Shown: piece after piece, positions 14,839 to 21,039 of the stretch
How the letters are laid out: each line of letters starts with the position of its first letter
How positions within the stretch are numbered: the first letter of the stretch is position 1
Source of the DNA: a phage
Assembly (NCBI GenBank): GCA_020773975.1
Contig: GCA_020773975.1_3638.1
DNA length: 64,000 nt
Reading direction: 5' to 3' (one strand)
Position numbers and translations under genes: made by a program
Notes under the pieces: model-generated
Databases searched by the model: none
What the model was told of the DNA's origin: nothing
Seen by the model: the letters and a program-made list of their open reading frames with translations, nothing else

Positions 14839-14856
14839 GCCACCTCTTCTTTTAAA

Positions 14857-14876
14857 AAGGTGCTTTTCAGCACCTT
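14857..14876 (-). terminator. rho-independent terminator after DNA polymerase exon 2
   Basis: AAGGTGCT-tttc-AGCACCTT hairpin followed by T-run on minus strand. Confidence 0.55.
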
Positions 14877-14883
14877 ACCATTT

Positions 14884-15183
14884 TTAGTGAGAATCTGCCC
14901 ATGTGTATCCACAAAGATATTCTCCTGTAATTAAAACTGGAAGCCCCATTATCTTAGATGCTTTTTCTACACATTTTGTTGCAAGCTCTCCTACTGGGCA
15001 ATGCAGTATCCTGTATTTCCCATACACATCAGGTTCAACAATAACTCTACCCGCTTTCACATAATGTCCGTCGAAACGATGACCTTTTTCAAGCATCATA
15101 TCTACATAGCTTTGTGCCGCCTCTAAGTTAGAATGCTCCGTTATTGATTTAAATCTTTCCGGTACTTGTACCTGTATCTCATC
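14884..15183 (-). CDS. family A DNA polymerase, exon 2 (motif C to C-terminus)
   Basis: Begins DEIQVQVPERF (HDE motif C once joined to exon 1) and ends GEYLCGYTWADSH like PolA C-termini. Confidence 0.85.
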   Translation of the reverse strand, partial: DEIQVQVPERFKSITEHSNLEAAQSYVDMMLEKGHRFDGHYVKAGRVIVEPDVYGKYRILHCPVGELATKCVEKASKIMGLPVLITGEYLCGYTWADSH

Positions 15184-15501
15184 CATCAGTTCAGAGAGTT
15201 CGTTACGCTCTCCCGCACCATTACGTGCATAGCCACAAGATTTCTCCTGTGGGTCGGACTATCTCATCCTCCTGATATTAAGGAGGCCTCCCGTTTCGAC
15301 CGCACTTGCTGGCCTACTCTACTCGCTTTCACATTACTAGTGTGCTTTCGATAGTCTCTGAACGTTCATCCCATAGGGATGCTTCGCTGCGGATTAGCAT
15401 ATTGAACTTTTGCTACTTTTACGTATAAAAGCCAGCTTAGCCTTCCCGTCAATTAGAGAGGTTTTCGACATGCATTACTGCATGAAGCCACAATGTTATT
15501 T
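15184..15501 (-). ncRNA. group I self-splicing intron (ORF-less, 318 nt) in DNA polymerase gene
   Basis: P/Q/R/S-like elements AAUUGACGGGAAGG, AAUCCGCAGC, GUUCAGAGACUA, AGAUAGUCCGACC; IGS GUGG pairs with exon end CCAU; ends in G. Confidence 0.8.
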
Positions 15502-17913
15502 ATGGTAGTAGATAACCCTCCTGACACCTTGGTCGTACCATCCCCATTTCACCAATTCCCAATGGAACAGGACTCCCATGAGGTCAAACAATGAAGCACC
15601 ACCGTTTTGTTGGTAAGCATTCAGCAGAGAATGTTTAGAACGAGTCCAAATTTTACGCCCGTCCATGCCTGGAATATAGCGTCTCCCATTTGCCTCCCAG
15701 AATTTTTCCAACCACTCCCTACGCATTTTCAACCCGAAGTTACTATCCCAGAATGCATCTATTACAGCCTGTGCTCTATTAAGGGGGATACCCAGCATTG
15801 CGGCTATCTTAGGAGCTTGTGCTCCATACATAATTCCATACGTAACCCCCTTTCCTCCAGAGCGTGTTACCTCCTTTCCTGCTGCTATTGTGTATGCTCT
15901 TGCGTTTCGTTCATGGGCATCCTCTTCCATCATGATACGTAAATACTCACCACCATCAAACTCAAAAGCCCCTGCCGCTGCAATCATACCTTCTAAGTTA
16001 GATCCATCACAACCCATCAGGTAGTAGCCTTCAGGGACTGTCCAAAGACCCCGCATTTCTTTTCCCAACAAAACCTTCGGATCAGGCTTGGGCATGTTTG
16101 CGCAAACAGTATGCTTGCACCTGCCCGTGTTAGTGATTCCAGAAAAACGTGCTGGAAGTTTTCCGTCAATGTCTAAACGAGGGTGATTTAATAACCCTGT
16201 ATCCGTCTTATCCTCATCCATTGGGTCTAAAACAGATCGCCTGTTACGAAGTGATAGCCACTTAACAATCTGTTTTGCCATATGCACATCAATTTTCTCC
16301 AAATTTGGACACAGATGCCCAAAATTATCTTTTAATTGAGGAGATGTCGGTAACTGGCGTGCTTTACGCCGAAATTTCTTAAATATCTCTGAATAACCCC
16401 TTTCAGATGCATGGCGATGGTCAAACTTACGCTCTGAAATGTTGAATTTCTCATCTGAATCATTAAGGTAGTCAAGAATAAGAGATTTATACTCAGACTC
16501 TGCCAACTCTTCTATGTACTTCTTAACTAGTACATCAATTTCAGAATCTTCACGAGTCTTTTTAAATTGATCCTTAGTAACATCTTTTACGCGCCACAGT
16601 GTAGGTTTCCAACCAGCATCTTTGATCAAATATTTTTTAATATCATCCTGATTAGAGATTTTCATTGGAACCATTAAATCTGGCATTTTTCTGTTTCGAA
16701 GGTCTTCTTTAGCCTTCTCTAGAAGATCCGGCGGTAAAGGTTCGAGTGTGTTCTCTTTGGTTCGCTGGGAACGAATGAAATCACCGTATAAAGCCGGATC
16801 TTCAATGCCATTCTGGATGCAATATCTCTCCCCTGCTGCACTTACATCCCCATTGCTCTTAAAAGCTGTTTTTGGTGGAGCTTTAAACTCCAGAGCTTCC
16901 CTGTTAACAGGATAGCCAAGTTTATATTCCAACCAATTCCACCCATGATGAGATATATTACCCGCTGTGTCAAAAGGGTTAGCTGGGAATTTTGGTTGTT
17001 GAGATTTCGTCATCTCTTTTTTTGGAAGAAGTGGTTCTACCTCTTCTTCAATTTCTCGCATCATCTTATCTATGCGATCTCTTAATTTTTCTGCCTCCTC
17101 CCGATTAAAGTATACGCCTTGTATTTCTTGCTCTATCATCAAATAGTCTGTGAGCATTCTCCTACGTAATGCATTTTTCCAATTAATCTGGTGCATCCCG
17201 TGAGGTTTATCAGTGTACATAAACTGCTTGTCATCAGGCCATCGCGTACCATTTGACTCATCAATAAGAGCTTTCCACACAAGTTCGTTAATGATAACGT
17301 CTTCCCACACACGGTTTACATATTCCCACAATGGCTGATTACGCCAATCATCAATCTGCACTTTCTTGTTTGCTACACGATAACCCCATGCCAATAAGCC
17401 GTGTGGCCCAACCCTGTCACGTTTTCCTGTTACAGGGTTCAATACAGAATCTGGGCAGCCATTAGGCAATGGGCGATCTGGGTAAAGAACACGACTCATT
17501 GAAAGAGTGTCGTAAAGATTTACCTGTTTATTACCTATCGTCCCCATACATTTTAGGTCTTTGAACATGTCATATTCAATCCCAGAAAGTTTTTTCCACA
17601 GACGTAAATCATAGCCGAACAGGTTATGTATTGCTATCCCTCTTGGCTCGGTCTGCAACCAAGAGTAAAAATCATCATAAGAAAGGATACGTAAATTAAC
17701 ACCTTCTTTGCTGCGTGCAAAATTAACTGCACTCTGGTATTCCTTGTGAGCAGGATCGAGAAACAACACCCAGTTATTTACAGCATATTCTTTAAAAAGT
17801 GTGCAGTGATATTTAGTTGCCTCTTCTAATAATCCGTCAGCTTCGTTATCTCCGACAAAAAGCCCTTTCATACTCCTCCTATTCAAGATGGGCTTGACTG
17901 TATCGTCGCCCAT
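15502..17913 (-). CDS. family A DNA polymerase, exon 1
   Basis: Motif B RSGGKGVTYGIMYGAQ; ORF runs 2 codons into the intron before a stop. Confidence 0.85.
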
Positions 17914-18066: not shown

Positions 18067-21039
18067 TCAAAATGGAGAATCGCTATCTAAATCTTCAGGT
18101 TGCTCAATCACAACAGCAGGTTCTTGTTGAGGAACAGAAACAGCAATTTTCCCCACAGGTGTTTCAAGTTCCAGACTTTGAATCATTGATTTAGGTCTTA
18201 GCATTACCTCCCCGTTGAGTTTAAACATATTGTCTTCCCACACCCATCCTGACGCATCAGAAAACTGACCATTATCATCCATAATCAGGGTATCCGCTAT
18301 GCCTAATTTTTTGTGTGGACGGTTTTTCAAAACAACACTACGAATACGCCCACGAGATCGGTCAGGGAGTTCTTCAGGCTCGACACCTAAGACAACCCAC
18401 GATAACTGTTCGAGTGCTGCACTATTTCCTGTGACAAAAATATGTCCGTTGCGGCGTGCCACCCACATACCGGATGGTAATGTAAAGCAATACTTGCGAC
18501 CATCTGGGGAAGGTACACGTTTAATAGAAGATTTATTTTTCCCTCCTTTACGTATATGCATATACTTTGTGGCACAAACTCTTACTACATACAGAGGTTT
18601 GTGATCATATTTACCATCAAACGCACCATTGCCATTTTTTACAACAGACACAGACGTTCTATGCCCACAAGCACTGTAAGCAAATTGTAGGAAATCTGCC
18701 TCAAATTTGTTAATGGTTGATACCCTGTTTCTGTTTACAGAATCACCATCCCAATACATGACTTCATCACAGATAATCTCCAACTCGTGCTGTTTAAGAT
18801 TAAACCATTCCTTTGTCACCCCTTTATACCCACAAGGGGCTTTAAATTGGTACTCTGTTCTGCCTTCATGCTTCCCGTGCAAATCAAAACTCTTGTAAGG
18901 AGTGTTCGTCTTCTTCAGTAGCATCTCAAGGCGTTGTTTCTTACGTTCTTTTTTGATGCGTACAGCTACCCTTCCCGTTGATTCAGTAAGAACCGTCCCA
19001 TCAGCATTTACAGCTATCTGTAAACGTAGTTGATCATCAGTTAACCCTAATGAACCATCACATCCAGTGGTGAATGTAGTAGGTATTTTACCACGCATAC
19101 CTGATCGTTTATTGGTATGGTCATGAACAACCTCCTGCATAGTTTTCATACGAAAAATATCAGGCGTTCGATCGTTTACATACACAACACGATGTTCATC
19201 GCTCAACATCATGTCTACAACATGGCTATTAGAAAGATGCCACATTTCATTACAAGGTAGATTAATGTACGCCTCGGGATTTACGAAGGTCATTACACCA
19301 TTTTTATCGTGTTGTGCAACCAAATCTCCTTCTACGTATTCATCAATACGTTTCCAGCCTTGCGGGGTTAAGAACTCTGTGCTTGCATCAACACAACCAC
19401 GGAGATCCTCTTTCCGCACAGGATACCAAAACGGTAACAAATTACCTTCTTTATCTTTCGGAATTTGTATATCAACACGCTTCATATGACTGATACTGAG
19501 GATAAACACGTCATATTTTTTGCAGAAGGCAGCCAATTCCGTCATGATGTTATCTAAATCTCTTCGCTCGTTATCGGATTTTAATCCTGATATCACCATC
19601 GATAAGTGATCTAAGATAATCCATCTACACCCATCAAGGAAAACCATCTGTTTCAATTTTTGTAGTAATTGGTCAGTTGGTATTGAACCAAAGTGATCGA
19701 AAATTTTAACCTTATCTTCGGCAATCCATCGTTGGTGTATAGCTAAGTGCTGCTCATCGGTAAGGAATTGTTCTGGGTCTGCAACAAATGCTTTCGGGTC
19801 AATCTTTAGCTCCTCAGCATATAAACTGTTTACAGACTCCTCCTCATCCTCCTCTAGACGAATAATTGCAATTTTCTCGTTCTCTTTCCAACCGTCTAAT
19901 CGGGGAATATCCATGTTACGGAGGTACTCGATAATTGCATACTCAATCTTTCTTGAGAAAGTTGATTTCCCAGCTCCAGATGGGCCTGTCAGTGTCCACA
20001 ATTCTCCTGTTCGTGGGCCTCTTGTTAGTTCATACAAACGAGGAAAGCACGGCAACGGAACGCCATCTTTTTTCTTTTTACGGAGATTTTCAATAGATAT
20101 TCTCTCCAACCCAATCAATTTGTCTGGAACATATTTATCCTGCGCTTTAGCAAACATATTCCAGATATCCATCCATTTACCTTTTTTGTAAATATCCCGG
20201 ATATCTTTAACACCATTTGGGTCATTGCGCTCATTTGGGTATCGTGCAACATAGATGTTGTCAGACAGTAAAAAACCTGCGACATCATCTGTGGCTTCCT
20301 TACCTTTCTTAATTCTGTGTTCTTTTTCCCTTGCTGTGGCTTCATCATTGTCTAAGCCAAGGACAATCTTTTCATATTCCCTGATAAACTTTTCGTTGTG
20401 GGCGAATGTATCCACAGCATTGGCTGTACCACAGTTCAACCCGATAAAAGGTAATGTCGGGCAATTAGAAACCTCTTCCCCATCCTGAATTGCTTTGATG
20501 CCTTTTAAAGCATTGTTTGCCCACTCACGTACTGAACGTGACGTGTTAGGATTGCTATGAAGGAATTTAATATACTCAAACCCAGCTTGCCAGCCAGCCG
20601 TTACATCACCTTCCCCCTCAACAATAAAGATCTGTTTTTTACCAGATCCCATAGAGGCCTCATGTTGACCAAAAAATTGAGAGGAAGCCTTTACTGTGCC
20701 AACAACAGAGAAATGCCCCTTTTTCTCTTTCGGAACAGTCCAGTCTCGTTTTTTGTACCCTGTCAATTTCCCATATTTGTCATAATATGGAAGATATGTT
20801 GCCACCACTGTAGTACCGTCTTTCAAATCTGTTGCAGATCTGATCTTGAAGTACTTAGCTGCATCTAAACTAATATCCATTTGGGGGACAGCCAAGATCC
20901 TTGTACTATCTAGGACAGACTCTACAGTTTCTTCTTCTTTTTTCTGATAATTCACTTTACCACCACTTTTTGTAGGTCGGAATGCTTTTGGGTTCTCACC
21001 TTCAAAGTATGCACCAGCCCCCCATTTTGTCATCTTCAT
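18067..21039 (-). CDS. T7 gp4-like primase-helicase (TOPRIM + DnaB-family helicase) containing an intein
   Basis: TOPRIM IVEGEGD...LGLDNDEA; Walker A GPSGAGKST; Walker B-like WIILDH; acidic C-terminus ending in F (DLDSDSPF) as in T7 gp4; no N-terminal Cys4 zinc ribbon seen. Confidence 0.85.
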   Translation of the reverse strand: MKMTKWGAGAYFEGENPKAFRPTKSGGKVNYQKKEEETVESVLDSTRILAVPQMDISLDAAKYFKIRSATDLKDGTTVVATYLPYYDKYGKLTGYKKRDWTVPKEKKGHFSVVGTVKASSQFFGQHEASMGSGKKQIFIVEGEGDVTAGWQAGFEYIKFLHSNPNTSRSVREWANNALKGIKAIQDGEEVSNCPTLPFIGLNCGTANAVDTFAHNEKFIREYEKIVLGLDNDEATAREKEHRIKKGKEATDDVAGFLLSDNIYVARYPNERNDPNGVKDIRDIYKKGKWMDIWNMFAKAQDKYVPDKLIGLERISIENLRKKKKDGVPLPCFPRLYELTRGPRTGELWTLTGPSGAGKSTFSRKIEYAIIEYLRNMDIPRLDGWKENEKIAIIRLEEDEEESVNSLYAEELKIDPKAFVADPEQFLTDEQHLAIHQRWIAEDKVKIFDHFGSIPTDQLLQKLKQMVFLDGCRWIILDHLSMVISGLKSDNERRDLDNIMTELAAFCKKYDVFILSISHMKRVDIQIPKDKEGNLLPFWYPVRKEDLRGCVDASTEFLTPQGWKRIDEYVEGDLVAQHDKNGVMTFVNPEAYINLPCNEMWHLSNSHVVDMMLSDEHRVVYVNDRTPDIFRMKTMQEVVHDHTNKRSGMRGKIPTTFTTGCDGSLGLTDDQLRLQIAVNADGTVLTESTGRVAVRIKKERKKQRLEMLLKKTNTPYKSFDLHGKHEGRTEYQFKAPCGYKGVTKEWFNLKQHELEIICDEVMYWDGDSVNRNRVSTINKFEADFLQFAYSACGHRTSVSVVKNGNGAFDGKYDHKPLYVVRVCATKYMHIRKGGKNKSSIKRVPSPDGRKYCFTLPSGMWVARRNGHIFVTGNSAALEQLSWVVLGVEPEELPDRSRGRIRSVVLKNRPHKKLGIADTLIMDDNGQFSDASGWVWEDNMFKLNGEVMLRPKSMIQSLELETPVGKIAVSVPQQEPAVVIEQPEDLDSDSPF
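18424..19395 (-). mobile_element. intein (324 aa, Hint + LAGLIDADG-like endonuclease) in the helicase domain
   Basis: Starts CVDASTEF..., ends ...HIFVTGN with +1 Ser; removal joins DLRG|SAALEQLS; LAGLIDADG-like LQIAVNADG. Confidence 0.75.

Follow-up and report, generated by a model that had tools for sequence, protein, structure and literature searches.

Why is the DNA polymerase gene of this phage interrupted immediately before the codons for its catalytic Asp-Glu? In the window (the whole stretch of 64,000 nucleotides analyzed here), the polymerase is distributed over two minus-strand ORFs of the ORF list. The upstream ORF (15496-17913) encodes 805 amino acids and ends with ...VRRVIYYHK before its stop codon; the downstream ORF (14884-15186) encodes 100 amino acids, with the N-terminus MDEIQVQVPERF... 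and the C-terminus GEYLCGYTWADSH. Judging from the sequence, the 318 nt between them (15184-15501, minus strand) are almost certainly a group I intron, a phase-0 insertion that separates the His codon of polymerase motif C (HDE) from the Asp codon. The intervening RNA begins with AAAUAACAUUGUGG and ends with ...CUGAUG. Its bases 1-6 (AAAUAA) provide both the Lys codon and the TAA that close the 805-aa ORF, and its final three bases are the ATG (15186-15184) of the 100-aa ORF.

Joining position 15502 to 15183 leaves exons of 2412 and 300 nt, each a multiple of three and in frame with each other. Exon 1 (15502-17913, minus strand), delimited by the ORF list, the joining test and the Pfam family DNA_pol_A, has 804 codons and ends with ...VIYYH, its last base being U. 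Exon 2 (14884-15183, minus strand) has 99 codons plus stop and begins with DEIQVQV, including the catalytic Asp-Glu of motif C. Together they encode a family A DNA polymerase of 903 amino acids (...VIYYH/DEIQVQV, ...VIYYHDEIQVQV; the slash marks the junction). In this product, YYHDEIQVQV was aligned with AWVHDEIQVGC of T7 DNA polymerase, that is, with motif C and its catalytic Asp-Glu. The DNA_pol_A profile matched amino acids 592-814 of the joined protein, continuing across the junction to profile position 344; on exon 1 alone, the match covered amino acids 592-757 and ended at profile position 278. Furthermore, uninterrupted alleles were found in Raoultella phage Ro1 (Mydovirus; ...TTATTACCAT/GATGAAATT..., encoding YYHDEIQVQV) and in Escherichia phage naam (...TTATTACCAT/GACGAATAT...). 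From the sequence, the spliced mRNA is expected to read ...CTACTACCAT/GATGAGATAC... (...UACCAU/GAUGAG...) and the peptide across the predicted junction VIYYHDEIQVQVPER. An in-frame acceptor 3 nt further upstream (...CUG/AUGGAUGAG), which would yield H-M-D-E with an extra Met, was rejected because the intron-less alleles encode YYHDE and the relatives have A or U, not G, at that position.

A search with the covariance model of group I introns (Rfam RF00028, Intron_gpI; cmsearch) matched positions 15511-15236 on the minus strand over the full length of the model (1-253) with 81.2 bits (E = 4.6e-19), far above the gathering cut-off of 50 bits. This was the sole RNA-family match in the 64-kb window, both at the gathering level and at E ≤ 0.1, and the same scan of the whole window revealed no further introns at E ≤ 0.1. 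The final 52 nt, comprising P9.1, P9.2 and the terminal G, lie beyond the end of the match at 15236 and were placed by comparative analysis. The intron has the architecture of subgroup IA2, which is recognized by extra helices P7.1 and P7.2, linked by G-U-A, between P7 and the 3′ strand of P3 (PMC3428280); in the window, P7.1 and P7.2 are joined by GUA. On the sense strand, the longest start-to-stop ORF has 28 amino acids. Folded as a single sequence, the intron gave a modest thermodynamic signal (z = -2.45), and its minimum-energy structure without constraints did not display group I topology. The latter was not counted against an intron because it is expected for a pseudoknotted ribozyme. 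From the sequence and the homologues described below, we infer that the window intron is catalytic.

The initial annotation, made from the bare sequence, had proposed a group I intron splitting the polymerase exactly at motif C. The covariance-model score, the T7 alignment (VHDEIQV) and the contiguous alleles of Ro1 and naam, which display the HDE expected at this position in homologous polymerases, all agree with this proposal. The ORF ends that it gave and the VIYYHDEIQV that it read across the join were likewise recovered. Its description as a 'minimal ribozyme without its own homing endonuclease' holds with respect to the endonuclease (longest ORF 28 aa) but not with respect to 'minimal', as copies in Vibrio phages are only 253-259 nt long. 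Its one omission was that both the intron family and the insertion site had been described before.

To resolve the structure, the window copy was aligned with 11 GenBank homologues after trimming of ORFs (alignment A1, 12 sequences). The homologues come from 18-1-2 and Av-05 (Avunavirus); JEP1, JLBYU08, rV5, FV3 and Mangalyan (Vequintavirus); SSE121 (Seunavirus); CR9 (Certrevirus); and the unclassified Vibrio phages K412 and qdvp001. Without guidance, RNAalifold recovered P1, P2, P3, P4, P5, P7.2, P8, P9, P9.1 and P9.2, with compensatory changes in 26 of 66 pairs. The canonical structure, drawn by hand from P1 to P9.2 and including P6 and the pseudoknotted P7, comprises 65 pairs in 11 helices. 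The pair counts do not include P6a and P7.1, which vary too much in length to be aligned consistently and are based on hairpins in the individual sequences. In the hand-drawn structure, 98.8% of the alignment cells were paired, compared with 35-41% when the 3′ partners were slid by 1-3 columns. Compensatory changes occurred in 26 pairs, and the observed covariation score was reached by none of 500 shuffles. P1, P6 and P10 hardly vary, if at all, and contribute no covariation evidence; for P1, this is because exon and guide are both conserved.

All helices of the window copy lie on the minus strand. P1 (15488-15505) pairs CCAU/AA (15505-15500) with the guide UUGUGG (15493-15488); its six pairs are invariant in 12 of 12 sequences, and the Rfam alignment contains the same helix. 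The GUGG/CCAU pairing with a U-G pair at the 5′ splice site, read from the sequence in the initial annotation, is part of this helix, and the wobble U15502.G15491 marks the splice site. Downstream of P1 follow the P2 hairpin (15469-15484; all six pairs compensatory) and the 5′ strand of P3 (15456-15461, pairing with 15292-15287; two of six pairs compensatory, 100% paired). The P4-P5 domain with its P5 extension (15388-15451), supported by the Rfam alignment and by covariation, contains the P and Q elements. P6 (15362-15387; 15387-15385 with 15364-15362) encloses the P6a hairpin CAUCCCUAUGGGAUG of 15 nt (15381-15367). The R element, the 5′ strand of P7 (15351-15358), pairs with the S element (15262-15256) to form a helix that is pseudoknotted with P3; two of its seven pairs are compensatory, one of them a change from G-C to A-U at the pair flanking the bulged A of P7, and 97.6% of the cells are paired. 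In the Rfam alignment, the four strings that had been named P-, Q-, R- and S-like turned out to be the 5′ and 3′ strands of P4 and the 5′ and 3′ strands of P7, respectively. Next to P7 are P7.1 (15350-15324), the GUA linker (15317-15315) and P7.2 (15314-15298), for which a constrained fold, covariation in P7.2 and an invariant GUAG were obtained. The remaining helices are P8 (15268-15286; four of six pairs compensatory), P9 with a GAAA loop (15252-15233; five of eight), P9.1 (15228-15215; one of four) and P9.2 (15213-15193; three of six), the last three also being found by RNAalifold.

The elements expected at the splice sites and in the guanosine pocket are in place. All 12 sequences have the same internal guide sequence, a U.G pair at the 5′ splice site and a terminal G. 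The terminal guanosine (omega-G, 15184), with which the intron had correctly been said to end, precedes GAYGAR (Asp-Glu) in each of them. The invariant pair G15356-C15257, adjoining the bulged A15357, presumably forms the guanosine-binding site; this assignment was made by analogy with G264-C311 of Tetrahymena, which we take to be the equivalent pair. The first four bases of exon 2, GAUG (15180-15183), could form a 4-bp P10 with CAUU (15495-15492) beside the guide. RNAalifold also proposed a pairing of GUCCG, part of the 3′ strand of P7, with UGGAU across the 3′ splice site. We rejected it because it is invariant and incompatible with P7, for which two compensatory pairs were observed.

With respect to its origin, the window represents an Avunavirus-like (Vequintavirinae, rV5-like) Escherichia phage. 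Its polymerase region is about 96% identical to those of the Avunavirus Escherichia phages 18-1-2, 19-1-2, TH18 and Av-05. Searched by sensitive blastn, the 318 nt returned matches in 178 phage records. In all 11 GenBank homologues compared, the insertion directly follows the His codon (CAU), precedes GAYGAR and is bounded by an exon U and an intron G. The copies fall into two kinds: (i) ORF-less introns of 253-329 nt in the window, 18-1-2 (Rfam 91 bits), JEP1, JLBYU08, rV5 and both Vibrio phages; and (ii) ORF-bearing introns of 771-843 nt. The intron is absent from Mydovirus Ro1 and from several phages of Vequintavirus, e.g. naam and JES2013.

A pattern scan of viral contigs yielded 12 loci, nine with both ends at the polymerase H/DE site and a tenth with the 5′ end only; three (L016, L017 and L018) were Av-05, phiTE and qdvp001 found again. 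The ORF-less copies among them measured 253, 259 and 311 nt and the ORF-bearing ones 687-849 nt. One off-site locus (L026) was discarded as a chance match in GC-rich DNA without intron signal. Another off-site locus (L025, positions 658-1004; IMG/VR contig 3300018411_000029, 51 kb) contains a related IA2 intron (Rfam 52.3 bits) that has the GUA-P7.2 core and P9.1 in common with the window family. Its host gene is apparently an RNA polymerase beta-prime-like ORF (...ARNPTLTRGSIGYNQ...LNLID / ADFDG...), with the intron located in a catalytic motif of the NADFDGD type.

The same intron at H/DE was also found in the Vibrio phages K412 (L009, 601-854), qdvp001 (L011, 901-1153) and L027. These introns are 76-78% identical in nucleotide sequence to the window copy, while the polymerases are about 45% identical in the region, pointing to lateral intron transfer between distant phages. 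The Vibrio copies (253-259 nt) lack P7.1 and the P5 extension. A separate observation concerns P8, the P5 extension and P7.1, which differ blockwise among the window, 18-1-2, Av-05 and the Vequintavirus copies and suggest mosaic exchange of intron segments.

Both site and family have been encountered before. In the T7-like phages PhiI and W31, polymerase site 881 is occupied by self-splicing IA2 introns with an HNH gene in P6a (as summarized in PMC3428280, citing Bonocora and Shub 2004). Site 881 of E. coli Pol I follows the His of H881-D882-E883 and is the window site, as the T7 alignment (VH/DE) confirms. Compared by site and architecture, these introns resemble the window copy in having P7.1 and P7.2 joined by GUA, and the ORF-bearing relatives of the window intron have their HNH gene in P6a as well. 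Two differences stand out: the host of the window intron is a myovirus of about 120-140 kb (Vequintavirinae) rather than a T7-like podovirus, and the window copy has no endonuclease gene.

A second comparator is Pectobacterium phage CB7 (Certrevirus), a member of the same subfamily, in which both HNH-containing polymerase introns splice in infected cells according to RT-PCR and cDNA sequencing (PMC7344957). We checked the CB7 sequence and found its second intron (HNH CB7_50) at YYH/DEYQ, the H/DE site of the window, with homologous ends (5′ AAGUAACAUUGUGGCUU..., 3′ ...AAACUUUUG/GAUGAA). The CR9 intron, a near-twin of that of CB7, is part of alignment A1 (70% core identity). CB7 differs in having an HNH ORF in P6a, where the window has the 15-nt hairpin, a shorter P7.1 and an additional upstream intron at motif B, which the window lacks. 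More generally, the introns of T4 (td, nrdB and nrdD) and the polymerase introns of the Bacillus phages SPO1, SP82 and Bastille are of the IA2 type, as is the window intron, and are self-splicing. Like the window copy, they reside in conserved catalytic regions of genes for nucleotide metabolism or replication, those of T4 being in other genes than the window intron. They carry HNH or other homing endonucleases in peripheral loops, which have been lost or inactivated in some copies. Other polymerase intron sites are 674 (SPO1, SP82, Bastille and Pf-WMP3) and 676 (phiL7) (PMC3428280).

We infer that the window copy would follow the steps of the standard group I scheme. The polymerase gene would be transcribed together with the intron, and pairing of the guide UUGUGG with CCAU/AA would form P1, placing the U.G wobble at the splice site. 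An exogenous guanosine held by P7 would then attack after U15502. Subsequently, the terminal G15184 would occupy the guanosine site while P10 (GAUG/CAUU) aligns exon 2, and ligation of the exons would produce the mRNA for the 903-aa polymerase with an intact HDE. If the RNA were not spliced, the ribosome would meet a stop after a single intron codon (AAA UAA), and the 805-aa product would lack the catalytic Asp-Glu; splicing would therefore be needed for a working polymerase and for phage replication.

Alternatively, the insertion could remain in the RNA and the polymerase could consist of two polypeptides (805 and 100 aa) that assemble after translation. Split phage genes that do not splice exist, and the NrdA gene of Aeromonas phage Aeh1, split by mobE, is a precedent for post-translational assembly (PMC7344957). 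Moreover, the downstream ORF of the window does open with a start codon (ATG, 15186-15184), the relatives having GTG or TTG there. This NTG, however, is merely the conserved UG of the intron 3′ end, and no Shine-Dalgarno-like sequence precedes the NTG at 15186. A split at this point would also part the His from the Asp-Glu inside one catalytic motif, and the maintenance of a catalytic core by 26 compensatory pairs across genera would be senseless for an inert spacer. In addition, the CB7 homologue at H/DE splices (PMC7344957). We regard assembly from two polypeptides as extremely improbable and retain the spliced intron as the preferred reading.

The relatives of the intron differ mainly in P6a. 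In Av-05, FV3, Mangalyan, SSE121 and CR9, the P6a hairpin gives way to a segment of 497-529 nt with an HNH endonuclease gene, and the ORF of the Av-05 intron belongs to the Pfam family HNH_3. The ORF-less P6a hairpin (CAUCC-loop-GGAUG) is conserved in Avunavirus and Vequintavirus. No homing endonuclease is encoded in the window copy (longest sense ORF 28 aa), and tblastn with the three HNH proteins of Av-05 revealed no candidate for a trans-acting endonuclease in the 64-kb window. The window copy therefore cannot home by itself, and its spread would require recombination or an endonuclease provided in trans. It derives either from an endonuclease-free ancestor or from a copy that lost the gene. 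The family is mobile in the sense that it is present or absent among close relatives and present in distant hosts. A precedent for an intron that persists and spreads without a working endonuclease is the T4 nrdB intron, which has a defunct I-TevIII and is mobilized in trans by the free-standing HNH endonuclease MobE (PMC2790892). Unlike the T4 system, the window contains no such trans-acting candidate within its 64 kb.

Used as a tblastn query, the HNH protein of the Av-05 intron identified a family of 2437 records. A match in Pectobacterium phage Clickz (Autographiviridae) was considered as a T7-like comparator and dropped because the gene lies outside the polymerase, its neighbors being the collar and head-tail connector genes. 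In Av-05, a free-standing NUMOD4/HNH_3/HTH endonuclease gene directly follows the polymerase gene (L002, 5761-6399), an arrangement which we take to resemble that of T3 gene 5.3 beside its polymerase. In the window (14839-14885), this gene is missing and the polymerase is directly followed by the next ORF.

Introns without an ORF can decay, which raises the question of whether the window copy is a relic that self-splices poorly, depends on a protein cofactor or leaves the phage with a crippled polymerase. Such decay would be in keeping with the absence of the endonuclease gene, with the lower identity to the closest relative 18-1-2 in the intron (86%) than in exon 1 (97%), and with an S element that reads GAGAUAGUC instead of the commoner GAUAUAGUC. 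Yet the same S element occurs in JEP1, FV3 and rV5, all core helices of the window copy are intact (with 98.8% of the alignment cells paired, as given above), and the G-C pair of the presumed guanosine site is found in it, as are the U.G pair and the terminal G. As the polymerase gene is essential, a non-splicing allele should not persist. We therefore consider a decaying relic very improbable, and a functional intron remains the preferred reading.

Possibly, though we think it rather unlikely, the endonuclease-free intron has been kept because it is protective in mixed infection: by splitting the HDE-coding target, it may render the gene immune to the HNH endonucleases of relatives (Av-05, FV3 and CB7 type). 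If this were true, cleavage and marker exclusion would be avoided without the cost of an endonuclease gene, and the P6a hairpin shared by the two genera would represent a stable lineage of an 'immune allele' rather than repeated recent deletions. The ORF-less, ORF-bearing and intron-less alleles form a natural series for the gain and loss of homing endonuclease genes in introns.

A second intron site of the polymerase is empty in the window. It lies between 15835 and 15834 (minus strand) in motif B, KGVTYG/IMYG, after Gly763 (E. coli numbering). In 18-1-2 and Av-05, it is occupied by an HNH-containing insertion of 735 bp with exon U and intron G bounds, which scored 47.5 bits (E = 8.7e-11) with Intron_gpI, just below the cut-off of 50. 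The codon at the site is GGA in the window and GGT in the intron-plus alleles. PMC3428280 lists 674, 676 and 881 as polymerase intron sites but not 763.

A further interruption was noted in the neighborhood. Positions 18424-19395 (minus strand), within the ORF 18067-21039, encode a 324-aa insert in a 990-aa DnaB-like primase/helicase (CVDASTEFLTPQGW...GHIFVTGN/S). The insert is precisely missing from the Av-05 orthologue, the flanks of which are 98-99% identical; in 18-1-2, the corresponding sequence shares no more than about 50% identity. On visual inspection, the insert shows end blocks like those of inteins and motifs resembling LAGLIDADG, with Gly in place of His before the final Asn; it gave no Pfam match at E ≤ 1 and no PDB sequence match.

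The window intron is a new, unannotated and endonuclease-free member of a family that is already known, at a known site. No description of the Avunavirus copy was found in the literature searched, and the rV5 genome paper mentions introns only in the terminase. General knowledge of group I introns is unchanged by this case, and specialists will not be surprised. It extends, by a well-supported ORF-less copy, a lineage of introns that insert into the catalytic HDE motif of family A polymerases; the H/DE site is occupied in podoviruses of the T7-like kind, in four genera of rV5-like myoviruses and in Vibrio phages. The finding is mainly of practical value, for the correct annotation of an essential polymerase in the Vequintavirinae, a group with applications in phage therapy and biocontrol.

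A truncated polymerase plus an orphan, the outcome predicted in the initial annotation for any ORF-based approach, is indeed what the GenBank records of relatives contain. Split or orphan polymerase ORFs were found in the public records of 18-1-2, JEP1, rV5, FV3 and Av-05. In Av-05, the polymerase is annotated in three pieces with HNH endonuclease genes between them; JEP1_076 and the rV5 ORFs 225-227 are 'hypothetical proteins' overlapping the intron or exon 2; and in 18-1-2, the final exon of the polymerase lacks any annotation. Splitting the polymerase into fragments and 'hypothetical proteins' in this way inflates orphan counts and breaks polymerase phylogenies of the Vequintavirinae. We also noted rV5-like sequences in about 20 records that bear the name 'Campylobacter phage' (MG0656xx).
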